From Gemmatimonadota bacterium (lineage in GTDB: Bacteria > Gemmatimonadota > Gemmatimonadetes > Gemmatimonadales > GWC2-71-9): DNA of 64,000 nucleotides. Position numbers and translations under genes: made by a program. Within the stretch, counting starts at the first letter, position 1. Each line of letters starts with the position of its first letter. Shown here one piece after another: positions 40,897 to 56,497 of the stretch. The stretch spans positions 13,659 through 77,658 of the forward strand of contig JBDGYW010000001.1 of assembly GCA_039588935.1 (NCBI GenBank), written 5' to 3'. The notes beneath the pieces were generated by a model. That model made no database searches. It had not been told where the DNA came from and worked only from the letters and a program-made list of their open reading frames with translations.

Positions 40897-40911
40897 CGTA
40901 TCCTCCCAGGC

Positions 40912-41397: not shown

Positions 41398-41438
41398 CCT
41401 CGTCGCGTCCCAGGCGTAGCCCGCGTAGTGTCGACGCC

Positions 41439-41654: not shown

Positions 41655-41671
41655 GCCCCATCGGCTGGCGG

Positions 41672-42037: not shown

Positions 42038-42046
42038 GCGACCAGT

Positions 42047-42361
42047 CTACTTCTTTTTCTTGCCCTTGAGCACGACGGCGATGATGACGAGGCCGCCGCC
42101 GATGACGATGTAGGGCAGGTACTTCTCGACTGCCGAGGGAGGCCGGTAGGCGACGCCAGGCTGCTGGCCCTTCTGCGCCAGGCCGGCGCCGTAGGCTTTC
42201 GCGCCGCCCGTCAGAACGTCCTTGATGAAGCCGAAGACACCACTGTCTGTCTTCGGGGCCGGCGTAGCGGTTGCCGCTGGCTTCTTCTCTTCCGGCTTGG
42301 GCAGGTACTCATCCCAAAAGGCGCCGAGGCCATTGGTCGGGGTTCCGGTGAAGTAGGGCAT
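42047..42361 (-). CDS. C-terminally anchored membrane protein (104 aa)
   Basis: ORF track 42047..42637 trimmed to ATG 42361 behind AGGAGAACCC. TM segment YIVIGGGLVIIAVVL followed by KGKKKK. Confidence 0.65.
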   Translation of the reverse strand: MPYFTGTPTNGLGAFWDEYLPKPEEKKPAATATPAPKTDSGVFGFIKDVLTGGAKAYGAGLAQKGQQPGVAYRPPSAVEKYLPYIVIGGGLVIIAVVLKGKKKK

Positions 42362-42369
42362 GGGTTCTC

Positions 42370-42948
42370 CTATTTTGCTGCGGGCTTCTTGCGCCGCTTC
42401 TTCCAGATGATGAGCCCGGCCAGGGCAGCAGCACCCAGGCCTCCGAGAATGAGTAGTTTTCTGCGCTTGCGACTCGCAACTAGGGCTTGCTCCTGGGCGA
42501 TCTGCGCCTGTTCGGCCGCGCTGGCCTGGGCGGCGAGCTCCGCGATGACCTTGTCGATCTCGGAAAACGGGATCCCCTGCTTTCGACCGTCGATGCAGAC
42601 CTCGAGCGACTGGCCCGTGTAGCCTCGGTCGGCGCACAGCTTGGCGATGGCGAAGTCGTCGTAGGGCCTACCCGCTCCCACCCAGGAGATGCACTCCTTC
42701 CAGGCCTCCCCGCGGAAGGCGGAGCACTTCTTCCGCTCAGCGTCCGCAGGCGTCTCCCTAACGGTCACAGCGCCGTTGACCGGCCCGCACGGATTCTGCC
42801 CGTCAGCCCGCTTCCGGGCGCAGTAGCCTGCCTTACCGGCGGCTGGCGGGCACCAGACCTTGCCGGCCCCACAGAGTGTCGCGGCGATGCGCTCTGGGGT
42901 CATCACCGTGAATCCGGCTTTCGTTGCGCCTGTTCCCACGTATCCCAT
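42370..42948 (-). CDS. Cys-rich, C-terminally anchored membrane protein (192 aa)
   Basis: ORF track 42370..43128 trimmed to ATG 42948. N-terminus MGYVGTGA. 10 Cys. TM segment LLILGGLGAAALAGLIIW followed by KKRRKK. Confidence 0.7.
   Translation of the reverse strand: MGYVGTGATKAGFTVMTPERIAATLCGAGKVWCPPAAGKAGYCARKRADGQNPCGPVNGAVTVRETPADAERKKCSAFRGEAWKECISWVGAGRPYDDFAIAKLCADRGYTGQSLEVCIDGRKQGIPFSEIDKVIAELAAQASAAEQAQIAQEQALVASRKRRKLLILGGLGAAALAGLIIWKKRRKKPAAK
42467..42479. repeat. 13-bp dyad, perfect palindrome TTGCGACTCGCAA
   Basis: Inside CDS 42370..42948 (coding strand GTT GCG AGT CGC AAG). Confidence 0.75.
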
Positions 42949-42950
42949 GA

Positions 42951-43538
42951 CTAGCTCCCCCAGATGGCGTAGGCCGCGGCGAGGGCCGCTGCGCCAATAA
43001 GCGCTATAGTGCCAACCCCCGTTTTCTTCTTCGGCGGTGCGGCCGGCTCGATTTCCGCCTCGTCGAGAAGCTCGTCGACGATCTCCTGCGGTGATTTTGC
43101 CCCGGCCCAGCTCTCGTCGGTCCACCACTGGCTGGCTCCCGCGCCTGATGGGTCGATGACCGGCTGCGGCGGAGGGGCCACGGGCGGAGGAGGCGGAGGG
43201 GAAGGCGCGGTCGTGAACCGCGGAGGCTGGCTGATTATCCTTGGCTCCTTGGTAACGAGCGGCTCCTTCGTCGGCCGGATCGGCGCCGCCTCGAGGACGG
43301 TGATTCCACCCTTGTCCCTGGACACCTCGGGCGAGGGGAAGAGCGTTCTCGTACCAGTCGGGAGCGGGGGGGGCTTCTCCAGCACGAGGGCGCCACCTCC
43401 ATAGATGGGTCGAGTGACCCTGGTCGGGGAGACGATCCTCGGGCTCTTCTTGACGACACGCCCAGTGAGTTCCGTTTCCTGCGCACCGGTCCCGAAGGTC
43501 CGCGACCGCGTGATAGCACCTGTTGCGACGTAGCCCAT
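42951..43538 (-). CDS. Pro-rich, C-terminally anchored membrane protein (195 aa)
   Basis: ORF track. N-terminus MGYVATGA. SPPPPPPVAPPPQP linker. TM segment VGTIALIGAAALAAAYAIW. Confidence 0.7.
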   Translation of the reverse strand: MGYVATGAITRSRTFGTGAQETELTGRVVKKSPRIVSPTRVTRPIYGGGALVLEKPPPLPTGTRTLFPSPEVSRDKGGITVLEAAPIRPTKEPLVTKEPRIISQPPRFTTAPSPPPPPPVAPPPQPVIDPSGAGASQWWTDESWAGAKSPQEIVDELLDEAEIEPAAPPKKKTGVGTIALIGAAALAAAYAIWGS

Positions 43539-43546
43539 GTCGGCTC

Positions 43547-44176
43547 CTAGGATTCGAGTTTCTTGGCTACCTTCTTGAGCAGCGGTGGTCCGAGGATGAA
43601 GACAGCGACAGCGACAGCGCCCCAGATGAGGAGCTTCTTCACGCCGCTACCAACGACATCAGTCGCCAGCGCGATTCCGCCGGCAATGTTCTCCGGCAGC
43701 TCCGCGACGGACTCGATGATCGCTTCGCGCGCCATCGTCCACTTCCCCTGGACCATGCCGGCAGCATTGCGAGCCATCGCGTATCGATTCGCAGTCTCCC
43801 AGAACTCCGTGTTCCAGGGATACTCTTCGTTCATCGCAGACTTGGCCGCGAGCAGCGCCGGTGCGGTCATTGGGTTTTGCCGCCAGAGCTTCACGAACGG
43901 CAGTTGAGACTCGAAAGCCATCCGCGCCGATTTATAGGAGTGGGTCTCGACAAACTTCTTTGGACAGTCGAGATTCCTGTCGAGCTGCATCTCACGAACG
44001 TTGCACGCGAGAGATGCGTAGTTCGAGGTCTGCGCAAGAAAGGCAGCTCCAAACATGTAGACATCCCGCCAGGTCGTCTTCGGGATCGCCTTCCCGCGTG
44101 GGCCGCGCGTGCCGCCGCGCAGTCCGACGTAGCGACGCTTCTCACGGAGGAAGACATCTAGTGCGTTGAAGGCCAT
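43547..44176 (-). CDS. C-terminally anchored membrane protein (209 aa)
   Basis: ORF track. TM segment LLIWGAVAVAVFILGPPLL followed by KKVAKK. Confidence 0.7.
   Translation of the reverse strand: MAFNALDVFLREKRRYVGLRGGTRGPRGKAIPKTTWRDVYMFGAAFLAQTSNYASLACNVREMQLDRNLDCPKKFVETHSYKSARMAFESQLPFVKLWRQNPMTAPALLAAKSAMNEEYPWNTEFWETANRYAMARNAAGMVQGKWTMAREAIIESVAELPENIAGGIALATDVVGSGVKKLLIWGAVAVAVFILGPPLLKKVAKKLES
43904..43916. repeat. 13-bp dyad copy TTGAGACTCGAAA
   Basis: Inside CDS 43547..44176. Confidence 0.55.
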
Positions 44177-44194
44177 CGCGATCCCCTTCCGGCG

Positions 44195-44812
44195 CTAGCG
44201 CGCCATCCTCCTGGCGAGAAAGAGCCCGATTGTGCCGGCGATGCCGATATTGCGGAGCTTCGGCTTGTTCGTGAACCAGCCGAAGGCCATGAGGGCCATG
44301 GCGCCGAAGTTGGCGATGTCGATAGCATCGACCGTCGAAACACCCTGCACGGCGAATAGCTCGCCACGCTCCGTCCACGCGCGGGTGTCGCGGCCCTTGT
44401 GGCTGGGGCGTCCGACACGCTCGACACCCTTGTCGATGATGCAGTTCGTGCCGAAGATGCGCCGGCCGTTCATCTCGATCTCGCAGAGGCCGGTCTCGGC
44501 GCCCTCGGGAACCACGACGGACGCCATGGTCGGGCCCATCATCTGCGGGTAGAGCCAACTCGTGCCCTGGAACTTGACGCGGACCTGGCCCTGGCCGAAG
44601 CCACCGAACGGCCCGGTCACGTTAACCACGTCCCCAACCCGCGTGTGCGTTGGGAAGATGCCGCCAGGCGTGGTCGGGCCCGGGGCGCCGGGGTGGGGCG
44701 CGATCGGACCGGGTAGGCCTCCAGGGAAGCCCGGCCAGCCGCCGGGCAGATTGAACTGGCCCAGCTCGGTGAGGAGACCACGTTCGCCGCGGCCGGTTTG
44801 CTTGTAGCTCAT
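44195..44812 (-). CDS. Gly/Pro-rich protein with an IPT/TIG-like beta domain and a C-terminal anchor (205 aa)
   Basis: ORF track 44195..44920 trimmed to ATG 44812 behind GGAGGAAAGCGGC (ATGA overlap). GDVVNVTGPFGGFGQGQVRVKFQG...VVVPEGAETGLCEIEMNG. Confidence 0.65.
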   Translation of the reverse strand: MSYKQTGRGERGLLTELGQFNLPGGWPGFPGGLPGPIAPHPGAPGPTTPGGIFPTHTRVGDVVNVTGPFGGFGQGQVRVKFQGTSWLYPQMMGPTMASVVVPEGAETGLCEIEMNGRRIFGTNCIIDKGVERVGRPSHKGRDTRAWTERGELFAVQGVSTVDAIDIANFGAMALMAFGWFTNKPKLRNIGIAGTIGLFLARRMAR

Positions 44813-45162
44813 GCCGCTTTCCTCCGCTTGCCGGCCTTGTAGCCGACGAGAAAGGTCAAGCCCAGAACCCCGGCAACGACGGTCGGCAGGAGCCATGGGT
44901 GCTGGCGCTGGTAGATCCAAATCTTGAGTGGCGTCACGGCGAACCGAAGGCCGATTCCCCTCTTGACAGCCGCGGTGCTCAGACCCACCGTAGTTCTACA
45001 CGGAGCCCCGGGTGCCTGGCCGCGCTCGACCTTTGCGAGTCGCAACACCTCGCAGGTGAACTGCGGGAGATAGGGATCGTCCAGGACGTTCTTGCCGACC
45101 TCCAGTGCCGAGGCTACCTTGCCCCAATCTGCTCCGAGTGCTTGACGTTTCCTGTAACTCAC
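44809..45162 (-). CDS. C-terminally anchored membrane protein (117 aa)
   Basis: ORF track 44809..45243 trimmed to GTG 45162 behind AGGGGGG. TM segment LLPTVVAGVLGLTFLVGY followed by KAGKRRK. Confidence 0.55.
   Translation of the reverse strand: MSYRKRQALGADWGKVASALEVGKNVLDDPYLPQFTCEVLRLAKVERGQAPGAPCRTTVGLSTAAVKRGIGLRFAVTPLKIWIYQRQHPWLLPTVVAGVLGLTFLVGYKAGKRRKAA
45033..45045. repeat. 13-bp dyad, perfect palindrome TTGCGAGTCGCAA
   Basis: Inside CDS 44809..45162. Confidence 0.75.
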
Positions 45163-45369
45163 AATGGACCCCCCTGAGTCGCCCGCTGGCCTGCCTCGCG
45201 AGGCTTGTCGGTCGGACTCTCCGGTTGTTTCCGACCGCGGCAATCACGCCGTGAGCTGGCGGAAAGGAGTAAGCGCCAGCTGGGACTCGTTTGGTTGGCT
45301 CTGCAGACCATGGGTTTTGATGCCCCCCTCATGACTAGGCCAGCGGGCCACGCAGAGGGGTCCGTTGTG

Positions 45370-45522
45370 TCAGTCGCCCTTGAGCGCGCTCCAGATGAGG
45401 ATGCCGACCGCTGCGTAGATCCCAAGCTTCATGATATTGGAGAAGTCGGGGACCGCCGCGAGCGGTGCTGGTTTCCTCTTCGGTGCGTAGAGAGACGCAC
45501 CGCTGCAACCCGCGCAGGGCAT
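45370..45522 (-). CDS. Small membrane peptide (50 aa)
   Basis: Not in the ORF track. ATG 45522 lies 2 nt after the upstream stop. My translation is MPCAGCSGASLYAPKRKPAPLAAVPDFSNIMKLGIYAAVGILIWSALKGD. Confidence 0.4.
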   Translation of the reverse strand: MPCAGCSGASLYAPKRKPAPLAAVPDFSNIMKLGIYAAVGILIWSALKGD

Positions 45523-45524
45523 CG

Positions 45525-45749
45525 CTAGCAGAGGCTCCCGTAGCCGCAGCTACTGAGGCTTCCGAGGCTGCCACCGCCGAGCGTGCCCAGGCCGTCGCTC
45601 GAGAGCGAGCCCAGGCCGCTCGGGGCCTGCTTGCCCGCCGCGGGTGCCGGAAGCTTCGCTGCAGCCTTCTTCTTGTGGACCAAGAAGTAGTAGCCGAGCG
45701 CGAGGCCGGCGAGGCCCAGACCGATCTTGGTTTTCTTGCTGAGTTTCAT
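45525..45749 (-). CDS. N-terminally anchored Gly/Ser-rich small protein (74 aa)
   Basis: Tail of track ORF 45525..46409. ATG 45749 behind CAGGGAGTCAGCA. MKLSKKTKIGLGLAGLALGYYFLV... Confidence 0.6.
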   Translation of the reverse strand: MKLSKKTKIGLGLAGLALGYYFLVHKKKAAAKLPAPAAGKQAPSGLGSLSSDGLGTLGGGSLGSLSSCGYGSLC

Positions 45750-45776
45750 TGCTGACTCCCTGTTGAGCTGACTCGC

Positions 45777-45789
45777 TTGCGACTCGCAG
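45777..45789. promoter_or_regulatory. 13-bp dyad copy TTGCGACTCGCAG
   Basis: Intergenic, between stop 45796 and start 45749. Confidence 0.6.
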
Positions 45790-45795
45790 GCGGTG

Positions 45796-46440
45796 CTACA
45801 TGTTGACGATGCGATAGCCGGGGAAGCCGACGACCAGTGTTCCCTGCGTGGTGGCCGGCGTCTCGACCGAAAAGAGGATCCGCTGATAGATCGGCGTGAA
45901 GTTGACGACGGTGTTCGGCGTCCAGAGCGTCGGCACCGGCAGTGGGATCGCATTGCCCGGCATCGACAGGAGCGGAGGCCGCTCGGAGTTCTGGAAGTTC
46001 CGCTGCGAACCGCCATCGCTGATCTCATAGGAGATCGCGATGATGTCCTCATCGAAGTCGACCGCGCCGTTGGCCTGGTCGGGCAGCGGCCAGCCGGCCC
46101 AGACCGGACGCCAGAAGCCCCAGTAGACACCGTTGGACGGAAGCGACGGATACCACATGCAGACCGGGTAGTGCGTCCCAATGAACGGACCATCCTGCGA
46201 GACCTGCATGGGGATCGGGTTCCCGCGGAGCCCATTCTGGGCGATGGCGAAGGTCTGCTCACCGCAGAGCATGTACTCGACCCGGCGACCCGGGATCTTG
46301 TCGATCTCGTCGGTGATGCTCTTGGGGCCCTTGCGAAGCTCCTCGACCTGTTTGGAGAGCTGGTCGACCTCGGCATTGAGGTTCGCGATGCTCTGCATCG
46401 CCTTACCAATTACTGCTCTTACGTATTCCTGTAGTCCCAT
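45796..46440 (-). CDS. Coiled-coil plus beta-rich protein, candidate capsid/vertex component (214 aa)
   Basis: ORF track 45796..46491 trimmed to ATG 46440, whose first 22 nt match the start of 50389..50850 (MGLQE.V). The C-terminal ~150 aa are beta-rich (ISYEISDGGSQRNFQN...). Confidence 0.65.
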   Translation of the reverse strand: MGLQEYVRAVIGKAMQSIANLNAEVDQLSKQVEELRKGPKSITDEIDKIPGRRVEYMLCGEQTFAIAQNGLRGNPIPMQVSQDGPFIGTHYPVCMWYPSLPSNGVYWGFWRPVWAGWPLPDQANGAVDFDEDIIAISYEISDGGSQRNFQNSERPPLLSMPGNAIPLPVPTLWTPNTVVNFTPIYQRILFSVETPATTQGTLVVGFPGYRIVNM

Positions 46441-46521
46441 TGGGGTACCCCTTGGTCGGGCTTGGGTTGGGGTGGCTTTTGCCCTCGGCATGGCAGGCCC
46501 GAGCTACCTGGCCGGATTCAG

Positions 46522-46534
46522 TTGAGAGTCGTAA
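46522..46534. promoter_or_regulatory. 13-bp dyad copy TTGAGAGTCGTAA
   Basis: Intergenic, 3 nt from the stop codon of 46538..47893. Confidence 0.6.
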
Positions 46535-46537
46535 GTG

Positions 46538-47893
46538 CTAGTCGCTTAACTCCAGAATCGTGCCGAACCGTTGGGCTCGGTAGTGAAGGTCAGAGGAAAG
46601 AAGTGCCAGGTTCGCTGCTGGCGTCCCGGAACCCTTACCCGTGTCGTAGGTGTCCAGCACGTTGGTGCCTTCGCGGATCAAGTAAAGAAACAGGCAGGTC
46701 GATGGCGTTGGGCTGGCCGGCGCGTTGATCACTGCGATCTCCGCAATCTTGTGCTTGTAGATCTCGCCGTTAGCGACCGCCATCGTCGCTGTAAATGGCG
46801 TCCAACTAGCGACGGCTGGCACGGGTGAGAAGTTGACCGGTGCCCAGGTGTAGTAGCCGGAGAAGTAGGCGTTCTCAGTGGACGCTGGATCGGCAAGCGG
46901 CATGACGTGGAGATGGACGCGAACAGCAGTCGTTGTCCTCCACTTGTGGGGAAGCTGGTAGACGTAGTGCAGGCTGTCGTCCTGGTCATGCCGAAAATGG
47001 AGCAGGAGGAGCGCCGTGTCGCGAAACACCTCTTGCGTCAGCGCCGCAGCGCGGTTGCCGATGTCGGGAGCGCCTATGAGGTCGTCCCAGCGGCCCTGCG
47101 TCTGGGCGATCCAATAGCCACCGTCCTGGGCGGCGATGATCTCGAGCCCATCTGGCGTGTACGGGCCGCCGAGTTTGGTGAGCGTGTAGAGGTCGTCCAT
47201 GGTGCGAACGTAAGCGACCGAGCCGTCCTTGAGAGGGTCGGAGTTTACGTTTCCAAGCGCAGTCACGTCCTCGACATTGATGAGCGTCTCTCCGTCGTTG
47301 CCGGACACGGGCGGGTTGACGGCCACGGTGTAGACAACAGGCGTGCCGCTGCTTCCACCGCTTCGTCTGACGCGCATGTACTGCGCGACGATCGATCTAC
47401 TGAAGTGCCCGGGCTCTGCGAAGCTCTCGATTTCCTGCCATGCCGTGTTGTCCTGGCTGATCTCAATATGGACCGTGCCCGCAGTCAGGGTGCCCCCAAT
47501 GACAACCGTATTGAAGGTGCCGAGGGCACTCACGTCGGAAGCTGCGCCCGCACCGTCTCCGGCGGGCACGACGAGCTGGGCATACTGAGTGCCGTCGTTC
47601 GTTGCACCTACATCCACGTTCGCAGTCAGGACCATGCCGGTGCCGGCGAGAAATCCAGAGATGCGAACGCGCATGTAGCGCGCAGCGAGCTCAAAGGTCT
47701 TCTGCCCTGGTTTCGAGAAGGTCCAGAGCGGTCGCCAGTTCGCGTTGTCCGGCGAGAATTCGATCGTGAGCGCGGGGCCGGAGAGGCCGCCGCCGATTGT
47801 AATCGTCTTGACGCGCCCCATAATGGACACATCAGTCGACGCACCGACGCCATCGGCGGCGGGTACGGCGAGGTTGACGAAAACGTTCGACAC
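46538..47893 (-). CDS. Fibre/adhesin family member D (451 aa)
   Basis: ORF track. GTG start. MSNVFVNLAVPAADGVGAS, the same two N-terminal repeats (YMRVRISG / YMRVRRSG), and a unique C-terminal ~250 aa. Confidence 0.85.
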   Translation of the reverse strand: MSNVFVNLAVPAADGVGASTDVSIMGRVKTITIGGGLSGPALTIEFSPDNANWRPLWTFSKPGQKTFELAARYMRVRISGFLAGTGMVLTANVDVGATNDGTQYAQLVVPAGDGAGAASDVSALGTFNTVVIGGTLTAGTVHIEISQDNTAWQEIESFAEPGHFSRSIVAQYMRVRRSGGSSGTPVVYTVAVNPPVSGNDGETLINVEDVTALGNVNSDPLKDGSVAYVRTMDDLYTLTKLGGPYTPDGLEIIAAQDGGYWIAQTQGRWDDLIGAPDIGNRAAALTQEVFRDTALLLLHFRHDQDDSLHYVYQLPHKWRTTTAVRVHLHVMPLADPASTENAYFSGYYTWAPVNFSPVPAVASWTPFTATMAVANGEIYKHKIAEIAVINAPASPTPSTCLFLYLIREGTNVLDTYDTGKGSGTPAANLALLSSDLHYRAQRFGTILELSD

Positions 47894-47906
47894 TTGCGAC
47901 TCTCAA
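47894..47906. promoter_or_regulatory. 13-bp dyad copy (minus-strand reading TTGAGAGTCGCAA)
   Basis: Ends exactly at GTG start 47893. No SD. Confidence 0.7.
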
Positions 47907-47947
47907 TATAAGAACGGCCGCCCCTCCACCAAGGGAGAGGCGGCCGT
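47905..47947 (-). terminator. Rho-independent terminator downstream of the candidate major capsid gene
   Basis: 14-bp stem 47914-47927 / 47934-47947 with 1 mismatch and a 6-nt loop. On the minus strand it is followed by TCTTATATT. Confidence 0.6.
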
Positions 47948-47987
47948 GCCAGTCAGGTGGAGTGAACTAGCTGACCGACAGCAAGCT

Positions 47988-48569
47988 CTACTGGACGTCT
48001 CGGGTCTGGAGGCCGTCGATCATGAACATGATGACCTTCTGGTCATCGGTCGCACCGCTGTTCAGGATCGTCAGCGCGTTCGTCGCCCCGATCGCGAAGA
48101 ACTCCATGTTCACGTTGAAGTTCTGGCGCACGGGCACGACGATGGGACGGGCCAGCTTGAGGATCGCCTCCTGGCTCGGTTCACCGAGGTTGAAGATCGA
48201 AGTCGCGCTGGTGCCGTCGAAGCCCCAGAGGCCGCCGCCCGTCGGTACGTACCAGATGGGCGCCTGGAACTGAGGCTTATCGCCCAAATTCAAGGTGAAG
48301 TACAGCTGCGAGGTGACCTGCACGTAGTTCTGGCGATGGTTGGTGCCCTCGAAGAAGAGGTAGCAACGTAGCGACAGAATCACATATGTTTGATCCGATG
48401 CCAACTGGCCAGCCACCTGCAGATTGGTGAGTGCTAGCGTCCCCACGTTGGCGTTGCCAAACAGTCGGGTGCTCGCACCGATCGCGGTTGCGGGGTTGCC
48501 AGTGGTGCGGACGAGGGTGTCCCAGAAGGGCTGGTGGCGGCGTTCGCGTACGCCATGAAGTCTCGGCAT
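47988..48569 (-). CDS. Candidate major capsid protein, small beta-rich (193 aa)
   Basis: ORF track. AGGAGAGAAAA-ATG RBS. Dyad copy upstream and a strong terminator downstream. Beta-strand-like alternating pattern (TYVILSLRCYLFF, LYFTLNL, FNVNMEFFAIG). The function is inferred. Confidence 0.6.
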   Translation of the reverse strand: MPRLHGVRERRHQPFWDTLVRTTGNPATAIGASTRLFGNANVGTLALTNLQVAGQLASDQTYVILSLRCYLFFEGTNHRQNYVQVTSQLYFTLNLGDKPQFQAPIWYVPTGGGLWGFDGTSATSIFNLGEPSQEAILKLARPIVVPVRQNFNVNMEFFAIGATNALTILNSGATDDQKVIMFMIDGLQTRDVQ

Positions 48570-48590
48570 TTTTCTCTCCTGTACGTAGTG

Positions 48591-48603
48591 TTTCGGCTCT
48601 AAA
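48591..48603. promoter_or_regulatory. 13-bp dyad copy (minus-strand reading TTTAGAGCCGAAA)
   Basis: Intergenic, 21 nt upstream of ATG 48569 and just upstream of its RBS. Confidence 0.6.
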
Positions 48604-48681
48604 GCCAGGTCGGGTGTCGTCCCGCCTTGGGTTGATGGCGTGAGGGAGTCGAAAGGGAGGAGTCAGGAGGGAAACGCGAGC

Positions 48682-50211
48682 CTAGAAGCCGCCCGCGAAG
48701 ATTCCGGTGTAGAGGTTGGCCATCTTGTCGTAGCCGGGGCCGACCTTCGGCACCTGGCGCACGAAGCTGCGAGAGGGCACCGGGGCGACCATCGCGCGAC
48801 GCGGGACGGCCTTGAGCATGGCGGGGTTCTGCGTGCCGATGCCGGTGCCGATGTTGGAGCCGCCGAGCGCTTCCTCGAAGCCCTCGCCCATCTCCTCCAT
48901 CATGCCGAGCTCCTCTTCGGCGCCCATGTCGATGTACTCGCCCATCTCCTCCTCGTAGCCGCCGACATCGATGTACTCGCCGACGTCCACGTACTCGCCC
49001 ATGGCCGAGTCGTAGATGCCCTCGTCACCGGACAGACCGATGGTGCCGAGCCAGTTCGCCGGCACGTACGAGGTGAGGACGATCTCGATGAAGTTCAGGC
49101 CGAGGCCCATGAGGACTTCCTGCCGGTACTTCCGCAGGAGTGCCACCTTCTTGGTGGCGAAGCTGCCCGCGAGCAGCATCAGGCCGGCGCCGGCCGGCGC
49201 CGCGTGCTGGCCGAGGCTCGAGAGTCCGGGGACCATCGGGAGGACTTTGCGAGCCACAACCCGGCCACCGTACATCGCCGCGGCGACGGGGATCGCCTTC
49301 TTGACGGCATCGACGACGCCACCCTGGACGTTCGCGCGCATCTTGTAGCGGCGCATGAAGGCCTTGGAGCCGGAGCTGCCGTGAGCCTTCTGGAACTTGA
49401 TGGTCTTGCGAGCGCGCTTCACGCTCTTGGAGACGCGGCGCTTGCCCTTCCACTTCCGGCTCTTGAACTTCCGCTTCAGGCTCTTGCGATGGGCCTTGCG
49501 GGTGCGACGCCAGGACTTGATCGCCTTGGTTCCGCCTTTCCGCTTTCGCTTGCGCCATCCCTTGAGGGCCGCACGCCGACGAGCGGCCTTGGTCGTCTTG
49601 CTCTTCTTCTTGGCCACAGTCTTCCTCCTGGTGGTCTTGGCGGCGGTCTTCCTCTTGGTTGTCTTCCGCCTGGTCGTGGTGGTCTTGCGGGCCCGCTTCT
49701 TCGCGGTGGCTTTCCGCTTCCGGGTCGCGGCGGCCTTCTTGGCGGCGGCGCTCCGCTTGCGAGCCTTCGTGGCCCGGGTCGCGGCGGCCTTCTTGGCGGC
49801 GCGCTTCCGCATGGCGGAGATGGCGCGCGGCGTCTTGGCCTTCTTGGCGGTCTTCCGCTTCTTGGCCGGCTTCCGCTTCTTGCCTCCCCAAGTCGCGCCC
49901 TTCGTGATGCGCGGCTTGTACTTGGCCTTCATCTTCACGCCGACCGGGTTTTTGCGACGAGCCTTCGCGAGACTCTTGAGCCGGGCCTTGCGAGCAGCGC
50001 CGTGCAGCTTGCTCAGCGGGGTCTTCCGCTTGGCCACTTTTCGTTTGGCCTTGGGCATTCGCTTCCCTCCTGGGTTCTTGACAGACTGAGGAACTCCCGG
50101 CGGTCGACCTTTCCTAACGGGCTTGCGTCGGCCCGAGGCAGCCTTCTGCTTCGGGATGTACCGTTTCGTCGATCGTCGCGTAGTTCGCGGGTTGACGTAG
50201 AAAAGGGGCAT
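48682..50211 (-). CDS. Hyper-basic protein (509 aa): ~300-aa K/R/A/T low-complexity region, hydrophobic core, acidic tract, C-terminal TGIFAGGF
   Basis: ORF track. Repeated KKAA.TRK.K motifs. The C-terminal ~200 aa are paralogous to 18105..18767. Confidence 0.75.
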   Translation of the reverse strand: MPLFYVNPRTTRRSTKRYIPKQKAASGRRKPVRKGRPPGVPQSVKNPGGKRMPKAKRKVAKRKTPLSKLHGAARKARLKSLAKARRKNPVGVKMKAKYKPRITKGATWGGKKRKPAKKRKTAKKAKTPRAISAMRKRAAKKAAATRATKARKRSAAAKKAAATRKRKATAKKRARKTTTTRRKTTKRKTAAKTTRRKTVAKKKSKTTKAARRRAALKGWRKRKRKGGTKAIKSWRRTRKAHRKSLKRKFKSRKWKGKRRVSKSVKRARKTIKFQKAHGSSGSKAFMRRYKMRANVQGGVVDAVKKAIPVAAAMYGGRVVARKVLPMVPGLSSLGQHAAPAGAGLMLLAGSFATKKVALLRKYRQEVLMGLGLNFIEIVLTSYVPANWLGTIGLSGDEGIYDSAMGEYVDVGEYIDVGGYEEEMGEYIDMGAEEELGMMEEMGEGFEEALGGSNIGTGIGTQNPAMLKAVPRRAMVAPVPSRSFVRQVPKVGPGYDKMANLYTGIFAGGF

Positions 50212-50327
50212 TCGATCCGACTTGCGTTAGGTTGTGTCGTCCGAGCCGGAGAGCCCCCTGACGAGTAGCCTCGATGATGCGGGAGAAAGTCGTGACCTGT
50301 CAAGGACTTCGGGCGCGCCCGGGCGAC

Positions 50328-50340
50328 TTGCGACTCTCAA
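50328..50340. promoter_or_regulatory. 13-bp dyad copy (minus-strand reading TTGAGAGTCGCAA)
   Basis: In the 177-nt spacer upstream of 48682..50211. On the minus strand a TTGACA hexamer (50303-50298) follows about 24 nt downstream. Confidence 0.65.
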
Positions 50341-50388
50341 CAGGGCCAGCGTGTAGGCCCCGGAGTGAAACACCAGTGCTAGCGGTTT

Positions 50389-50850
50389 TCAGCGTCCGCG
50401 GCGCCGCAAAAGAAGGTCGAGTTTTTCAGTGTTGGTCTGCTGCGACTGTTTGATCAGGCCCTGTTCGGTCCTCACATCCTTTATAAGGCCCTTCTGCTCG
50501 CCGATCTCACCGCGCAGTTCACTGATATCCCGGCGCGTCGTCTCATGACCGTTTTTGTCGTGTTGGATCATCACGTCGCGGAGCTGCGAGGTGGTCGGCC
50601 TGTCCGCGAGCATGCTCGAGAGCGCCCACAGCGCGCCTGACAGAATCACGAAGGCACCGAAGGTGATCGACACGACCCGCAAGATCGATGGCGGCTTCGG
50701 TGTGGTCTTATGCTCCACTTCCGTGATCCTGGCGTCCTGCTTGGAGAAGACCTCGCTGCCGTTCTCAAGCCGGACTCGGTGCTCCACTGCGGCGTCTCGT
50801 AGTTTTCTAACTGCGAGCTGCAAACCAGCCACGTCTTCCTGTAGTCCCAT
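50389..50850 (-). CDS. Coiled-coil single-pass membrane protein (153 aa)
   Basis: ORF track. N-terminus MGLQEDV. TM segment ILRVVSITFGAFVILSGALWALSSML. Confidence 0.7.
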   Translation of the reverse strand: MGLQEDVAGLQLAVRKLRDAAVEHRVRLENGSEVFSKQDARITEVEHKTTPKPPSILRVVSITFGAFVILSGALWALSSMLADRPTTSQLRDVMIQHDKNGHETTRRDISELRGEIGEQKGLIKDVRTEQGLIKQSQQTNTEKLDLLLRRRGR

Positions 50851-50856
50851 TGACGA

Positions 50857-51345
50857 TCATCCCACGAGGCCCTGCGGTTTCCAATCGAGTTCTCCACCCC
50901 AGATGATCGCTACGAGTTTCCGGCGGTTGCGAATGAGCAAGAGGGCCTTCCCCTGTGGGTGCCAGTACCACTTGCAGCCTGCCGCCGTCGCGTCAACGAG
51001 CTCCCCGTCTCCCCCCCGATACCCAAATCCGAGAGCCTTCTTATTCAGACCCACCAGCGTCGTGTTGTCGCAGATTCGTTTCGGAACCCGACGCTTGCGA
51101 GAGGTTTTCTGACCTACCAGCCCAACAACGACGCGCGGAAAGGACTCGATGTCATGCACGTAGTCGTGCGTGCCGTCCTTCCACTTGTCGCTGCGGTAGG
51201 TCACATAGACACAGGGCCCTGCGTAGTAGACAGAAGTAGGGATCGCGACGCTCGACGGGAGGCGTTTGGCGTCCTTCACGTCGTAGGCGTGGAAGTCCTC
51301 GAACAGCCTAATAGCCCTGCGAAAGCCTGGCGGGCAGCTGGGCAT
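50857..51345 (-). CDS. Hypothetical protein (162 aa)
   Basis: ORF track. YVTYRSDKWKDGTHDYVHD motif. No family assigned. Confidence 0.7.
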   Translation of the reverse strand: MPSCPPGFRRAIRLFEDFHAYDVKDAKRLPSSVAIPTSVYYAGPCVYVTYRSDKWKDGTHDYVHDIESFPRVVVGLVGQKTSRKRRVPKRICDNTTLVGLNKKALGFGYRGGDGELVDATAAGCKWYWHPQGKALLLIRNRRKLVAIIWGGELDWKPQGLVG

Positions 51346-51678
51346 CTACTTCTTGGCTTCCTCGCTGAACACGTACTTCCAGAGGAGGTAGCCGGCGATC
51401 CCGAGCATAAGCAATTCCTTGTTGCTGATGTCGAGGGTGATTCCCGCGAGCGGATTGCCGCTCTTGCGAGTCGCAATCGAGCCCCTTGGATAGAGTCCTT
51501 TTCCGATCAAGACAGCCCCCATGGGTAGCGGTTGTGCGGCGTCGTCGGGCGCAACGCCCAGTTTTCCTCCGCCGCGGATCTTCGGTTTCTTGGCGAACAC
51601 TCCGTCGCGCAGCTCTCCAGAGGCGCGATAGTAATCGTAGCCCTTGCCATTCCAAACGGAGTAGTCGGCCATGATCAT
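51346..51678 (-). CDS. C-terminally anchored membrane protein (110 aa)
   Basis: Tail of track ORF 51346..52449. ATG 51678 (ATGA overlap). TM segment LLMLGIAGYLLWKYVF. Confidence 0.65.
   Translation of the reverse strand: MIMADYSVWNGKGYDYYRASGELRDGVFAKKPKIRGGGKLGVAPDDAAQPLPMGAVLIGKGLYPRGSIATRKSGNPLAGITLDISNKELLMLGIAGYLLWKYVFSEEAKK
51464..51476. repeat. 13-bp dyad, perfect palindrome TTGCGAGTCGCAA
   Basis: Inside CDS 51346..51678 (coding strand ATT GCG ACT CGC AAG). Confidence 0.75.
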
Positions 51679-51908
51679 CTCCCGCCGATCGCGTCGACGA
51701 CGGTTCGGTCGAAGAAGGTCTTCCCGCGCTTGTCCTTGCGGATGAAGACCAGGTAGGCGCCGATCCCGAGGAACGCGAGCGGCAGCACCGACCCTGCGAG
51801 CTTCGCATCCCCGAACTGCATCATCGGCGGCTTCGTCGATGGCATTGGGTAGCCCTTCCAGTTGTACTCGTATTGGTAGGGCTGGGCTCCGTATCTGTAG
51901 TAGCGCAT
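51675..51908 (-). CDS. Tyr-rich single-pass membrane protein (77 aa)
   Basis: ORF track. MRYYRYGAQPYQYEYNWKGY. TM segment LAGSVLPLAFLGIGAYLVFI. Confidence 0.65.
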   Translation of the reverse strand: MRYYRYGAQPYQYEYNWKGYPMPSTKPPMMQFGDAKLAGSVLPLAFLGIGAYLVFIRKDKRGKTFFDRTVVDAIGGR

Positions 51909-51917
51909 CGCGCCCTC

Positions 51918-52823
51918 CTAGAAGATGCCCTTGAGGAGCTTGGGTGGCTTGAGCTTCTTGCCCTTCTTCTTGGACTCGTAGTAGTAGAGACCACCGACGA
52001 CCGCCAGGCCGATGCCGACCAGGGCGAGGTTGCTCTGCTGCACGCGCTGGAGCAGCGGCAAACCCGCGACGATCTGATCGCGGGGCGGGTTCACGACACC
52101 GCCGGTGCCAGACGGGGGCGCCTTCGGCGGAGGCGACGGGACCTTGGTCGCGACGTTGAGCTGGTTGGCCTGACTGTGGAGTTTCTCCATCGCGAGGTCG
52201 GCCGTCAGTGCCAAACCATCGACATCGGAGAAGGTCGGCGCGGGGATCTTTGCCAGGCACTTGTTCACGAGCGACAGCGTACCGGACCCGAGGCGCCCAT
52301 CCACCGCGATGCGAGACCAACCATAGGAGCTGGCAACCCGATTGGCCTGATTCTGCACGGCCTTGAAGAGGTTCGCGGTCTCGATCGTCATCGGCAGAAC
52401 GATGCCGCGAATCGGTTTGCAGTTGCCCTGCGGGTTCTTCGTGCTGCACCAGTTGGGCTGCAAGACGAGGCCCATCGAAGAGTAGCCCATGCCCATTGCT
52501 CCAGTCGGCGACGCGGAGTGGTTGCCTCGGTACAGCACGTCGCCATAGAGCTGCAGCCAGGTTTTGGATTTCCAGTTCGGACCGCTGAGTTCCCGCATCG
52601 CAGCGGCAGTGGCCTTGTCTACGAAACCGTCCTGGCGGTTTGGGTAGCCAAGCGTCGCCAGCTTGTGCTGAAGCGTCTCCACGATCATGATCGTCACCGG
52701 ATTGTAGACGTCCGTGGTGGCAGCCATCAGCCAGAGCTGCGGGACGGCCATCCCGGCATTCACGCGATCCATCCCCATTTCCATGGCGACGGTCACGGCA
52801 TCGTAGGTGTCATAGTCGGACAT
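51918..52823 (-). CDS. Membrane-anchored protein with two peptidoglycan-binding-like repeats (301 aa)
   Basis: ORF track 51918..52850 trimmed to ATG 52823 behind AAGGAG. LQHKLATLGYPNRQDGFVDKATAAAMREL resembles PG_binding_1. C-terminal TM segment ALVGIGLAVVGGLYYY followed by KKKGKK. Confidence 0.65.
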   Translation of the reverse strand: MSDYDTYDAVTVAMEMGMDRVNAGMAVPQLWLMAATTDVYNPVTIMIVETLQHKLATLGYPNRQDGFVDKATAAAMRELSGPNWKSKTWLQLYGDVLYRGNHSASPTGAMGMGYSSMGLVLQPNWCSTKNPQGNCKPIRGIVLPMTIETANLFKAVQNQANRVASSYGWSRIAVDGRLGSGTLSLVNKCLAKIPAPTFSDVDGLALTADLAMEKLHSQANQLNVATKVPSPPPKAPPSGTGGVVNPPRDQIVAGLPLLQRVQQSNLALVGIGLAVVGGLYYYESKKKGKKLKPPKLLKGIF

Positions 52824-52833
52824 CGATTGCTCC

Positions 52834-53823
52834 TTACTTGAGAGCCACAACCGCGATCAGGAGGACCGCTCCGCCTGCCACCAGGACTGGAACGAGCGGG
52901 AAGGGTTTCGCCGGGGCGGCATAGGCAGCACCGGGCTGGTCCGCACAGGCCGACGCGACCAGGTTTGCACCCTTCTGGCCAACCTCCGGCGGTGCGCCGG
53001 CTGCCGCGGCACCTCCGGAAGCAGCGAGCTGGCCCACCCTCGAGCCAGCGACATTGCAGGCCAGGCTACCGATCGAGCTGATGACCCCCTTGCCCCATTC
53101 GGCGGCCTTCATACCGGCAGGCGCCGCGGTCGCGGTCGCCTTGCTTACGCCCTTCGCAACCCAGGACAGCGGGTTGTACCAGGCGCCGAGTGCGCCCTGC
53201 ATGCCCTCCAGGACGACGATCTCGGAGGCCTCCCCGTAGGCGGCCAGGCCGAGCATCGACTTGACCTCGACACGGCCGGTCTGGCCGGCCCGGATGAACT
53301 CCTCAAGAAGGCCCATCGAGGTACTCGCGGCGATCGCCTGGTGGAGCGCGTGCTTCGGCGGCAAACCTTGTCGCTCGAACTTCCTACCCTGTGCGGCGAC
53401 GCGGCCCCAGAGCTTCGGATCGAGCTGATCGAAGACTGCCTTGAGGGCTGGCTTTCGCTCCTCGACTGGAAGCTGCCGGATGCTCGACATGATGCGGCTG
53501 GCCACCTGCTGTCCAAAGTTGGCGATCGGGTCCTTGCCCTGAACTGCGCCGGGCTCGTCGTCGCCCAGATACTTCGGGACCAGGACGTCGATGGATTTCC
53601 GCGGGTAGTACTTCGTGCGGTGAACCCCACGCCCGATCGGCTCCTGGCCAACGTAGTTCGGATAGGCGTAGCCCGGCTGCCACGGTGTCGGGATCGCTGG
53701 GTTGTCGATGCTCTTGCGACGCCGATACTTCGTGGTCGCCGTGCCGCGGCCAGGTGGCTCTGCCATCACATAGTCGGGAATAGCGTACTGCCCATCCCAC
53801 GGGTGCGGTTTGCGAAAGAACAT
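52834..53823 (-). CDS. C-terminally anchored protein with an N-terminal duplicated 28-aa motif (329 aa)
   Basis: ORF track. YAIPDYVMAEPPGRGTATTKYRRRKSID / YAYPNYVGQEPIGRGVHRTKYYPRKSID. TM segment LVPVLVAGGAVLLIAVVAL. Confidence 0.7.
   Translation of the reverse strand: MFFRKPHPWDGQYAIPDYVMAEPPGRGTATTKYRRRKSIDNPAIPTPWQPGYAYPNYVGQEPIGRGVHRTKYYPRKSIDVLVPKYLGDDEPGAVQGKDPIANFGQQVASRIMSSIRQLPVEERKPALKAVFDQLDPKLWGRVAAQGRKFERQGLPPKHALHQAIAASTSMGLLEEFIRAGQTGRVEVKSMLGLAAYGEASEIVVLEGMQGALGAWYNPLSWVAKGVSKATATAAPAGMKAAEWGKGVISSIGSLACNVAGSRVGQLAASGGAAAAGAPPEVGQKGANLVASACADQPGAAYAAPAKPFPLVPVLVAGGAVLLIAVVALK
52838..52850. promoter_or_regulatory. 13-bp dyad copy TTGAGAGCCACAA
   Basis: In the last codons of 52834..53823. 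On the minus strand it reads TTGTGGCTCTCAA-GT-AAGGAG, directly upstream of the RBS of 51918..52823. Confidence 0.6.
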
Positions 53824-53831
53824 GGATCCTC

Positions 53832-54362
53832 CTAGGCGACCGGCCAGACTTTGGCGGCCACGACGCGGCTGAGCATACGCTTGGTTCGACTGGCGGCGAC
53901 TGGATCGAGCGCGATCCAGCGATTGGTTTGTGGCTCTAAAGCCTCGGTGAAGACGTGCGAGAACTGGCGCTGCCCATGATGGAACATGTGCCGAAACGCA
54001 ACGGTGACGATTCGCGCCCGGCCGCCCCCCATGAGCACCATGGCCGTGAGCAGCGCGCAGGAATCATCGCAGTCGAGGGACGGCTTCTTGCCACTCACAA
54101 GTTCGCGAGCGACCACGTAGGGAGCCCTGACGAGCTCGACGGTCCTGGGGTCCCGCATGTAGCGGGTGTTGCCCAGGACGAAGTAGTAGTAGGCGAGGTA
54201 CTCGTCGAGGTAGGCCTTTCCCGGCAGACCCGCGACGATCTGCTCGAGGAAGAGACGCAGGTTATAGTCACGCTGCGAGGAGAGCGCAGCGTCGATGATC
54301 ACGCCGACTGTCTGTGGAGCACCGCGGTACGGAAACTTCAGTACTCGATCGTGGCCTCGCAA
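53832..54362 (-). CDS. Transglutaminase-like cysteine peptidase fold protein (176 aa)
   Basis: ORF track. Cys-His-Asp arrangement SLDCDDSCALLTAMV ... FSHVFTEA ... IALDP, as in the transglutaminase core. Confidence 0.65.
   Translation of the reverse strand: MRGHDRVLKFPYRGAPQTVGVIIDAALSSQRDYNLRLFLEQIVAGLPGKAYLDEYLAYYYFVLGNTRYMRDPRTVELVRAPYVVARELVSGKKPSLDCDDSCALLTAMVLMGGGRARIVTVAFRHMFHHGQRQFSHVFTEALEPQTNRWIALDPVAASRTKRMLSRVVAAKVWPVA
53928..53940. repeat. 13-bp dyad copy (minus-strand reading TTTAGAGCCACAA)
   Basis: Inside CDS 53832..54362. Confidence 0.6.
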
Positions 54363-54363
54363 C

Positions 54364-56070
54364 TCATGTTTCTTCTACCGGAGAGTCGTCGGGAGGGGTC
54401 TCGGGGTCGCCGAGGTCGTCGGGAAGGTCGTCGGTCAGATCGTCTGGAGCCTCTTCGTCTGGCTCCTCCGCTGGCTCTGGCTCCTCACTGATTTCGCCAG
54501 TGAGCAGGAACTCGGCGACCTGCCTGACCCAAACTCGACCGGGTACCGTCGCAAGCGGCGAGCCCGTCTGTATTTTAGCCATCTTACCAAGGAAGACGTC
54601 AACCCCGAGCCGACGCAGGCCGTCGAGAATGTCGTCCGGCAGCATGTTGCGTGCCGTAGCGGCAAAGACGGCAGGAGGCGTGTTATTTCGGATAGCTGTC
54701 TCCATGAAGGCCACGGCCTTGGCCATGTCCTCGTCGGAAACCTCAGGGATTTCGGGCTCGCCGGCCGCGCGGCGCGCCTCCCTCTCGGCCTGTTTGGCAG
54801 CCTGCTGCTCGCGCATCTTGTCCACCACGCCCTTGGGCATCTCGACGACCCGACCGTCCTGGAGGCGCACCTGCACGAGCTGCTCGTCCTCTTCCCCCTC
54901 CGCCCCTACTCCGGCCGCCGCCCCTGCGACGCGCCCGGCGATGGCTCCGGCAATCGGCGAGTTCGTGACCATTTCCAGTGCGCGCTCCCATCCGGCCTTG
55001 TCGCCGCCGCCGCTTGGCACCAGGGCCTCGAAGGCTTCCTTGACGGTCACGAGATTCTGGATCTGATCGATTGGCCCCTGCTCCTTTCGCGTGCGGAGCG
55101 CGACTGTCTCGGTCTCGGCCTTGTTGACCTCGCGCTCCAGACGCTTCTGGATGTCCCTTAGTCCATCGATCCGCATCTCGAATCCGTGCCGCTGGGAGTC
55201 CATCGCCTGCTGGTGCGCCGACTTCAGAGTATGAACTTCTCGCTGGCAGGCCGATCGGACCTCAGCGAGTTCTCGCTCAAAGCGAGCCTCATAGCGCTTC
55301 AGCTCCTCGAGGTGGAAGTCTTCACGCCGCGCCATCCTCGCCTCGTACTGCTGGCGGATCGCTTCCAAATTGTTGGAGTGCGTGGCTTCCTTGCTCTCCA
55401 TGATCCCGAACAGGCGCTCCTGGCCGGTGTTGTCGGGCTCCTTGTTGAGAGCCTCAACCAGGCGGTCGTCCTTGTCGGCCAGGCGCTCGCGGAGTGCCTT
55501 CATCTCCTCGCGCATCGGGGCGAGGATCAACTCCAACATCTCCAGGTCCTTACCTCCGCTATCGGCGCGGCTATCACGGAGTTGTCGCGCTTCTTCGCGG
55601 GATTCACGTACTTGCTGGGTCATGACGTTCATCGCCTGGCTCGCGAGGCCCTGATTCTCGCCGTTGCTGCTCGCCTGCTGCTCGTCTTCTTCGTCGTCGG
55701 CGTTGAGTAGGGAGTCCAGTTTTGGCGCTCCGGCAACGTCGAAGGTCCGACCCTCGATGTAGCCCCACCGACGTTTCTTGGTCTTCGGGTCCCTGCGGTA
55801 GCCCTCGACCCGAATCTGGAACTTGCCACCACCGTGTTCTTCCTTGATGCGATCGACGGTGACCGGTTCCTGGTAGGTTTCGAGTGCGCCGTCGACCTTC
55901 ACGCCGCGGTGTTTCGTCGGCGACAGGCGTGCGAGCCGCACCTTGATTTCGCCCGTGGCCCCGAACTGCTGGATCCACTCGTAGAGATCCTTGTCGGTTT
56001 CGCGCTGGATGTCACCGATCGGGTCATCCTTCGCGTCTGGTTCGTCAGTCTTTTGCGTCGTCGCTGCCAT
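54364..56070 (-). CDS. Large coiled-coil protein with an acidic C-terminus (568 aa), scaffold-like (inference)
   Basis: ORF track 54364..56112. ATG 56070 (MAATTQ) preferred. About 250 aa of heptad-like E/R/K/L sequence and a D/E/P-rich tail. Confidence 0.7.
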   Translation of the reverse strand: MAATTQKTDEPDAKDDPIGDIQRETDKDLYEWIQQFGATGEIKVRLARLSPTKHRGVKVDGALETYQEPVTVDRIKEEHGGGKFQIRVEGYRRDPKTKKRRWGYIEGRTFDVAGAPKLDSLLNADDEEDEQQASSNGENQGLASQAMNVMTQQVRESREEARQLRDSRADSGGKDLEMLELILAPMREEMKALRERLADKDDRLVEALNKEPDNTGQERLFGIMESKEATHSNNLEAIRQQYEARMARREDFHLEELKRYEARFERELAEVRSACQREVHTLKSAHQQAMDSQRHGFEMRIDGLRDIQKRLEREVNKAETETVALRTRKEQGPIDQIQNLVTVKEAFEALVPSGGGDKAGWERALEMVTNSPIAGAIAGRVAGAAAGVGAEGEEDEQLVQVRLQDGRVVEMPKGVVDKMREQQAAKQAEREARRAAGEPEIPEVSDEDMAKAVAFMETAIRNNTPPAVFAATARNMLPDDILDGLRRLGVDVFLGKMAKIQTGSPLATVPGRVWVRQVAEFLLTGEISEEPEPAEEPDEEAPDDLTDDLPDDLGDPETPPDDSPVEET

Positions 56071-56497
56071 CGGGCTCCTCCTCCTCCTCGTCCTCTTCTT
56101 CCACCAGAACATCGTCGACCATCTGGATCATGACGGCCGCCGAGTCACGGAAGGTCTGGATGAGCATCATCAGCTCTGGCTCGGGTGGATTCTCTGGGCT
56201 CGCACCCTTGGTCGCGTACTCGCAGAGCTGCATGCCGAGCGCAACCGTTGTTTGAATTCGGGCCGCGAGCCGTTGATGGATTCGATCATCGCTGCCGGTG
56301 ATCATCTCCGCGACTGCTCCCTCGCAGAGGTCTAGCCGCTCATTGACGTTCTTCTCCAGCTTGGCTTGGCTCTGCGCGAGCAGTTTCAGGAGCGGGTAGA
56401 CATTTCCGAGAAACTCGGCCTTCTGATCGATGATCGCGGCGTTACTCAGCCTGCTGATCGACGCATCGATCTCCGTCTGAATCGTCTCTGCTTTCAT
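56045..56497 (-). CDS. Hypothetical acidic helical protein (150 aa)
   Basis: Tail of track ORF 56045..56785. ATG 56497 behind GGAGGACGA (56503-56511). Confidence 0.65.
   Translation of the reverse strand: MKAETIQTEIDASISRLSNAAIIDQKAEFLGNVYPLLKLLAQSQAKLEKNVNERLDLCEGAVAEMITGSDDRIHQRLAARIQTTVALGMQLCEYATKGASPENPPEPELMMLIQTFRDSAAVMIQMVDDVLVEEEDEEEEEPDGSDDAKD

Follow-up and report, generated by a model that had tools for sequence, protein, structure and literature searches.

A hyper-basic 509-residue protein resembling a genome-condensing core protein, encoded by an apparently undescribed phage lineage

Known double-stranded DNA (dsDNA) phages pump naked DNA into preformed shells by means of an ATPase motor. 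Genomes condensed by protein characterize adenoviruses, baculoviruses, polyomaviruses, and some archaeal viruses; among the Microviridae, the J protein of phiX174 binds the genome through a basic N terminus and is tethered by a hydrophobic/aromatic C terminus to the inner surface of the jelly-roll capsid protein. In adenoviruses the virus-encoded polycations VII, V, and mu condense and neutralize a dsDNA genome within a jelly-roll-type capsid, with protein V as the link between core and shell and a cysteine protease encoded alongside (PMC7998265, PMC10081844). Here we analyze a 64,000-nucleotide stretch of contig JBDGYW010000001.1 (herein the window; assembly GCA_039588935.1, positions 13,659 to 77,658), in which the minus-strand gene 48682..50211 encodes a hyper-basic protein of 509 amino acids (aa). 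This protein looks like a genome-condensing core protein, carried by an apparently undescribed phage lineage.

The gene (stop codon included) is an ATG-started open reading frame (ORF) whose guanine-plus-cytosine (GC) contents at the three codon positions (GC1 0.57, GC2 0.52, GC3 0.88) follow the coding pattern of a 62% GC genome. Its start at the ATG at 50211 is validated by the N-terminal motif MP[IL][WFM]YVNP, which opens the longest ORFs of related DNA loci (438-544 aa) at their first start codon and is kept in every related locus with enough upstream DNA. The motif is present in 32 of 152 database representatives; the other entries are shorter gene calls from internal Met residues.

An earlier note on this DNA, made from the letters alone, had divided the protein into a basic tract, a hydrophobic core, an acidic tract (quoted as GEYVDVGEYIDVGGYEEEMGEYIDMG), and the ending NLYTGIFAGGF, and all four parts are present (all coordinates on the minus strand). 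Residues 1-294 comprise 74 Lys, 52 Arg, 45 Ala, and 27 Thr with no Asp or Glu, for a net charge of +126. Within this region, the N-terminal motif MPLFYVNP (aa 1-8; 50188..50211) is followed by a low-complexity polycationic tract (aa 9-265; 49417..50187) with 69 Lys, 47 Arg, 41 Ala, 26 Thr, no acidic residues, and a net charge of +116; the conserved motif SKLHGAARKARLK (aa 67-79) lies inside it. The region closes with the basic motif RARKTIKFQKAHGSSGSKAFMRRYKMRAN (aa 266-294; 49330..49416), which alignments show to be conserved and, in some homologs, duplicated. AlphaFold2 predicts two helices here (construct residues 2-16 and 19-27), with a predicted local distance difference test score (pLDDT) of about 70.

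The hydrophobic core (aa 295-393; 49033..49329; net +7) is common to the protein and a shorter paralog described below. AlphaFold modeling of the C-terminal region, which the earlier note had suggested and for which an 18-sequence alignment was used, yields three long helices of 20-32 residues over aa 295-391 (pLDDT 86-94). The same note had called this segment probably membrane-active, a description that goes beyond the data: its top-scoring Kyte-Doolittle window of 19 residues reaches 1.54, whereas the clear anchors in neighboring genes reach 1.8-2.8, and a Wimley-White scan does not discriminate. Because the hydrophobicity is only moderate, membrane insertion of the core is possible, not established. 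The hydropathy scan found no signal peptide or clear transmembrane (TM) segment in the 509-aa protein, and a Foldseek search with the predicted core gave no match (best E 4.9).

Beyond the core lies an acidic hexapeptide-repeat array (aa 394-450; 48862..49032; net -20) built of GEY[VI]D[VM] and [AM]EE[EM][LM]G units. Tandem Repeats Finder detects an 18-bp period beneath it (48921..49003), a period that recurs across the family under G-[DE]-Y-[IV]-[DE]-x and G-A-E-E-E-L units, and the repeat copy number differs among homologs. The array has no Pfam match, the hexapeptide-repeat family PF00132 included, and its hidden Markov model (HMM) matches in PDB to left-handed beta-helix proteins are weak and non-significant (E 0.038). 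The protein ends in a Pro-rich tail (VPRRAMVAPVPSRSFVRQVP..GPGYD) and the motif LYTGIFAGGF (together aa 451-509; 48685..48861), both with conserved columns; net charge is +6 over aa 451-499 and 0 over aa 500-509. For the acidic array and the tail, pLDDT is below 50. Among real ORFs of this genome, G-[IVLM]-F-x-G-G is unique to the two paralog families and always lies 1-8 residues before the stop codon. Two other readings of this terminus, in which the GG pair is a protease or ubiquitin-like processing site or the terminal aromatic residue is an outer-membrane-protein beta-signal, were dropped, as the position fits poorly.

A word-indexed search with the C-terminal 231 aa of the protein returned nine metagenomic homologs (E 1e-34 to 1e-73). 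Profile searching of 1.84 billion representatives extended the family to 245 clusters (50% identity) at E <= 1e-3, 171 of them at E <= 1e-10; all homologs are metagenomic. The TGIFAGG tag, which the earlier note had proposed to look for in metagenomic viral proteins, proves near-universal in the long-form family as the ending x-Y-x-G-I-F-x-G-G-[FYW]. Other conserved non-basic features are a KL[YH]GAAxKA motif, VPxxAMVAPVPxRSF, and the hydrophobic core, and the family also carries RARRTI[KR][YF]Q...[FY][ML][RK]R[YH][RK]MRxNP, duplicated in some members.

The basic region behaves differently from the C-terminal part. In 28 full-length members it spans 129-383 aa (median 269), with 34-54% Lys plus Arg, 0-10 acidic residues, and a net charge of +56 to +156 (median +104). 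Between one related pair of genomes, identity over the basic tract is 62%, with 43 gap columns and a ratio of nonsynonymous to synonymous substitution rates (dN/dS) of 0.47, against 84% identity, 2 gap columns, and a dN/dS of 0.27 for the C-terminal part. The dN/dS values and the retained charge, set against an indel-rich and poorly alignable tract, indicate that charge and frame are selected and that sequence and length drift. Judged from these alignments, such turnover is as expected for a non-specific polyanion binder. Almost every Asn of the family's basic tracts is followed by Pro (RRNP, KNP); NP dipeptides number 152 against 12.6 expected, a 12-fold excess (e.g., in L008 1760..3076 and L007 9173..10741, two related loci), and may signal helix N-caps or mark sites of processing.

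The short paralog heads a cluster of fibre-like genes on the plus strand (18105..18767; 220 aa) and consists of a basic N terminus of ~35 aa, the core (aa 53-144), and an acidic linker that leads to the ending ...TGIFAGGLSN. The relationship proposed in the earlier note holds: the two cores match in BLASTP at E 9e-7, a family HMM built without the paralog finds the paralog core (E 9.1e-15), and the two C-terminal motifs are collinear. Seven orthologs (205-240 aa, 44-55% identity) begin MAK.TASSKLTRKVA.RKKRKKR..KNP and continue through core and acidic linker to the ending DDDFxDIPGLNDxGxNVGIFSGGLSN. Since these orthologs start at the position of ATG 18120 (MAKR...) and the database copy has 215 aa, that ATG is probably the true start, giving 215 aa. 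A 78.6-kb relative keeps the window's gene order (DUF5131, Dam, paralog, 421 aa, 672 aa). In another related locus (L018), a 186-aa short paralog (7683..8243; family-HMM E 1.6e-18; ending ...NQGIFSTNWAN) is encoded just upstream of the hyper-basic long form, so short and long forms can adjoin instead of occupying separate modules. Since core and C-terminal motif are all that the paralog has in common with the long form, these two parts behave as a reusable anchor module with the polycation as variable cargo.

Directly downstream of the 509-aa gene lies the most conserved gene of the virus group, encoding a 193-aa beta-sandwich protein (47988..48569, minus strand). In all 14 loci with enough sequence, the gene next downstream of the long form encodes a 191-194 aa protein; 4 of these loci were retrieved through that neighbor and not through the 509-aa protein. 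The 193-aa protein has 767 database matches, the best 120 at 72-94% identity, on contigs that cluster at 66-88 kb. Its gene has an AGGAG-type ribosome-binding site and is followed by a terminator-like hairpin (47914..47947, minus strand; 14-bp stem, 11 G-C pairs). Upstream of the 509-aa gene, a consensus scan matched a sigma-70-like promoter (TTGACA-18-CATCAT; 50274..50303, minus strand; 10 of 12 positions); with two sites found against 1.0 expected, the scan is weak evidence for this site. Promoter match and hairpin would together close a two-gene unit.

The AlphaFold2 model of the 193-aa protein is a beta-sandwich of eight long strands (pLDDT 67). Foldseek returns weak matches, mostly to jelly-roll capsid proteins and other beta-sandwiches, including those of SPV1 and SH1 (best PDB E 8e-3, with TM-score <= 0.33; best BFVD E 9.6e-5, to an unnamed protein; TM-score <= 0.38 overall). 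The earlier note had named the neighbor a candidate capsid gene and placed the 509-aa gene directly upstream of it. The adjacency is borne out by the related loci, and the 193-aa product is likely the major virion protein, for which it is a strong candidate; the model makes its identity as a jelly-roll capsid protein a lead. In several relatives the 193-aa gene is split by insertions (L007/L002 10940..12368, L008 3226..4381, and also L001 and L011), of ~800 bp after about codon 43 in L007 and of ~360 bp in L008, where Rfam identifies a group I intron (RF00028, 63.6 bits) in the 3' part (4158..4381). Introns would fit a highly expressed, essential structural gene.

A contig from Logan matches the two window ends at 100% identity and bridges them with 16,497 bp, giving a circular genome of 80,497 bp; the window's own contig is 80,611 bp. 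The additional 16.5 kb encodes GP88, a sliding-clamp-like protein, a C5 methylase, ParB, SLT, two M23 peptidases, and an integrase, and contains no ORF longer than 400 aa. This part of the circle beyond the window was read from L015 (1183..10691) and L016 (543..7530). In the early regions lie genes for CI/Cro-like regulators, Dam, DUF5131, HNH, and a helicase loader, a set that identifies the genome as a temperate virus-like element, and IMG/VR lists one relative as a viral genome. Neither Pfam nor PHROGs gave a match to terminase, portal, or HK97 major capsid protein (MCP) in the window or the remaining 16.5 kb. A regular-expression search found no canonical Walker A motif (G/AxxxxGK[ST]) in any real ORF of the 80,497-bp genome, and no P-loop motif of an FtsK/HerA-type packaging ATPase occurs anywhere in it. 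These negative results are striking, and with no recognizable packaging ATPase a condensation-based packaging route becomes plausible.

The lineage appears to be undescribed. Searches of Pfam (E <= 0.1), PHROGs, and NCBIfam with the 509-aa protein, the paralog, and eight neighbors gave nothing meaningful, and Pfam was null for 18 family members; a phrog_381 tail fibre match (E 0.0035, aa 120-295) was rejected as compositional, being confined to the Lys/Arg-rich tract. PDB sequence-profile searches with the 193-aa, 231-aa, 582-aa, and 509-aa families returned nothing significant, and neither megablast (10 kb) nor tblastn (193-aa protein and 509-aa C terminus) matched any of the GenBank phages. 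These results agree with the earlier remark that no described phage family has this layout, as does a non-exhaustive full-text literature search, in which neither such a phage protein nor such a virus group came up. No relative was found among GTDB genomes, and hence no host is assigned; NCBI cluster names offer one label from a metagenome-assembled genome, Armatimonadota, on a 2.7-kb contig, which is doubtful.

We propose, with about even confidence, that the 509-aa protein is a virion-internal, shell-tethered, genome-condensing polycation of an uncultivated temperate virus lineage with genomes of ~66-88 kb. Its disordered N-terminal ~290 residues (+126, no acidic residues) would bind viral dsDNA without sequence specificity and neutralize its charge. 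The conserved C-terminal 215 residues, which run from the three-helix core through the acidic hexapeptide array and Pro-rich tail to the closing x-Y-x-G-I-F-x-G-G-aromatic motif, would tether this polycation to the particle shell, at the inner capsid face or an internal membrane. They would likely dock on the beta-sandwich product of the co-transcribed 193-aa gene, and the short paralog, with the same anchor module on a basic stub, would probably anchor the vertex/fibre proteins encoded after it. By arithmetic rather than from data, 80.5 kb carries ~161,000 phosphate charges, of which a few hundred to ~1,300 copies would neutralize a third to all.

Several points weigh against this proposal. 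DNA binding and a location in the virion or core are deduced from composition and gene context, and we likewise infer the membrane contact and the docking partner. The capsid role of the 193-aa protein rests on a moderate model and weak fold matches. As both the tail and the acidic tract are predicted at pLDDT below 50, no docking mode can be stated. Negative results from a regular expression and family searches leave room for a very divergent packaging enzyme, and a hydrophobic core with an escorting polycation would suit an ejection or pilot protein equally well.

From the same observations we infer that condensation may partly or wholly replace motor-driven packaging. A bolder version, which we put forward tentatively and consider more probably wrong than right, is that packaging is motor-less: the dsDNA would be compacted by the shell-tethered, protamine-like polycation and the capsid then assembled around it, in circular temperate genomes of ~66-88 kb with a small beta-sandwich shell and possibly an internal membrane. 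Such a mode is known in some eukaryotic and archaeal viruses and is not known in dsDNA phages. If true, a widespread polycation of +100 to +150 would represent another solution to genome packaging in bacterial viruses. It would also indicate a virus lineage, with hundreds of metagenomic relatives, that current marker-based classifiers cannot place. The family offers handles in its two conserved terminal motifs, foldable core, defined partner gene, and complete genomes.

The main rival reading, which we consider unlikely though the most probable of the alternatives, is a DNA-pilot or ejection protein carried in the particle. At infection its hydrophobic helices would enter the host envelope, and the polycation would accompany the genome inside; phiX174 H and podovirus ejection proteins would be analogs. 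The confidently predicted hydrophobic three-helix core favors it, as do the top Foldseek matches of that core, which are non-significant and mostly TM helical bundles, and the setting of the gene in a virion and lysis-like late operon with peptidoglycan (PG)-binding, SLT, and M23 enzymes. Against this, the hydrophobicity of the core is moderate and some of its conserved residues are charged, and a charge of +100 to +150 is far above any known for pilot proteins. A stoichiometric structural role accords better with the invariant pairing with a shell-like protein and with the failure to find a packaging ATPase; the latter result moves the balance toward the condensing reading over the ejection reading, without deciding between them. 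Even as an ejection protein, the 509-aa protein would be an unusual one.

Less probable again is an assembly scaffold or chaperone, not a permanent part of the core, that would nucleate the shell on the genome before being removed or processed, for instance by the transglutaminase-like cysteine protease of the operon. The separate basic and acidic modules and the docking-type C-terminal peptide do resemble scaffolding-protein logic, the NP dipeptides of the basic tract could mark processing sites, and a conserved 176-aa transglutaminase-core-like protein is encoded upstream. Cleavage of the 509-aa protein is a presumed step, however, the enzyme's family match lies below the Pfam threshold, and the NP excess is equally explained as a helix N-cap signal. 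The 176-aa gene itself (53832..54362, minus strand; 19.8 vs. 23 bits to the papain-like transglutaminase core) is the second most conserved of the module, with 56-60% identity to relatives, and its product is a candidate maturation protease or cross-linking enzyme.

Slightly less credible still is a late, H1-like nucleoid-targeting polycation that compacts or shuts off host DNA, or organizes replicating viral DNA, and is not packaged. Its Lys/Ala/Thr-rich sequence of the AKKAAATRKRKA type resembles the H1-like tails of Hc1, AlgP, and the HupB C-terminal domain, but the gene lies in the late structural operon and not in an early or regulatory region, the C-terminal anchor module also occurs in the paralog heading the fibre cluster, and the pairing with the shell-like protein is invariable. 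A holin-like or antimicrobial-peptide-like cationic protein acting in lysis or envelope disruption is very improbable: proximity to PG-binding and membrane protein genes and the combination of positive charge with a hydrophobic segment would suit it, yet 440-545 aa with a 300-aa polycation is far outside holin and spanin sizes, the protein has no signal peptide or clear TM segment, and the pairing with the 193-aa protein is left unexplained. That 48682..50211 is a GC-rich open frame and no true gene, a reading prompted by the frequency of long spurious ORFs in high-GC genomes and by an overlapping antisense ORF of 542 aa (48640..50268), is refuted by conservation, since protein-level similarity extends over the 245 clusters with both terminal motifs kept and dN/dS is below 1; the high GC3 belongs to the 509-aa frame only, the antisense ORF lacking a coding-type GC pattern, and the frame is therefore genuine, as first claimed.

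Other products of the minus-strand late operon that contains the 509-aa gene are a PG_binding_1 protein, fibre-like proteins, and numerous tail-anchored membrane proteins. Within 39000..57000, single C-terminal TM anchors occur in the products of 52834..53823, 42370..43128, 42951..43538, 43547..44176, and 44809..45243, and small TM proteins are encoded by 51675..51908 and 50389..50850; such a wealth of C-terminal anchors is typical of membrane-containing virions. The first large gene of the operon (54364..56112, minus strand) encodes a conserved 582-aa protein (28-30% identity) with a long central coiled coil and no family or PDB match. A ~211-231-aa protein usually follows the 193-aa gene, and hhalign found no relationship between the 193-aa and 231-aa families; here and in L019 (10681..11706) a fibre-like gene is inserted between the two. 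Four fibre-like paralogs are encoded in the window (18814..20076, 22136..23518, and 23576..24958 on the plus strand; 46538..47893 on the minus strand), with N-terminal tandem beta-sandwich domains of ~95 aa (MxN[LV]F[TV]NLAVPAxDGxGA...) and variable C termini. Of the four, 46538..47893 and 22136..23518 give weak F5/8-type-C matches, and fibre domains of the pectate-lyase type occur in relatives. At the left edge, the window cuts an integrase gene (1..527, minus strand) near a tRNA-Val gene (anticodon AAC; 1053..1128, plus strand), a possible attachment-site region of the temperate element.

Several described systems can be compared with this locus. P16-type proteins of PRD1 (Tectiviridae), which link vertices to an internal membrane, are like the short paralog in being small, in bearing a hydrophobic segment, and in having their genes beside those of the vertex/spike; the comparison is by description, and an internal membrane is putative here. 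Viruses with two single-jelly-roll MCPs (Sphaerolipoviridae-like) have the two MCP genes side by side. In most loci here, genes for 193-aa and ~211-231-aa proteins are adjacent and may be such a pair, but the jelly-roll matches of the 193-aa model are weak. Chlamydia Hc1/Hc2, Pseudomonas AlgP, the C-terminal tail of mycobacterial HupB, eukaryotic linker histone tails, and protamines have low-complexity K/R/A/T(P)-rich tracts with a charge density comparable to the 42% Lys plus Arg found here. Pfam and NCBIfam detect no globular domain of linker histone H1/H5 (PF00538) and no Hc1 or HU domain in the 509-aa protein, and, unlike the bacterial H1-like proteins, it is encoded in a viral late operon and has a C-terminal module that is conserved and non-basic.

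The closest systems, by analogy of design, are the adenovirus proteins VII, V, and mu, the J protein of phiX174, and the arginine-rich arms that jelly-roll capsid proteins carry; because no homology was found to any of them, the resemblance is one of logic and not of membership. The arms, as in circovirus Cap and many single-stranded RNA virus coats, are disordered polycations that line the inner capsid and neutralize the genome, and fold matches of the 193-aa model include capsid proteins that carry them; they act in cis and span 20-60 aa, whereas here a polycation of 129-383 aa would be supplied in trans. J (Microvir_J) has 20-40 aa, binds single-stranded DNA, and is packaged with it into the procapsid; the 509-aa protein is more than 10 times larger, has additional modules, belongs to an 80.5-kb dsDNA-type genome, and has no Pfam match to Microvir_J, leaving a likeness in logic alone. 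With the adenovirus core proteins (Adeno_VII, Adeno_PV, pX/mu) there is no Pfam match, and the C-terminal profile has no PDB-sequence match. Adenovirus retains a packaging ATPase (IVa2), of which the 80,497-bp genome shows none, and here, unlike in adenovirus, the host is bacterial and a single protein of ~500 aa joins polycation, helical core, acidic repeats, and docking tail.

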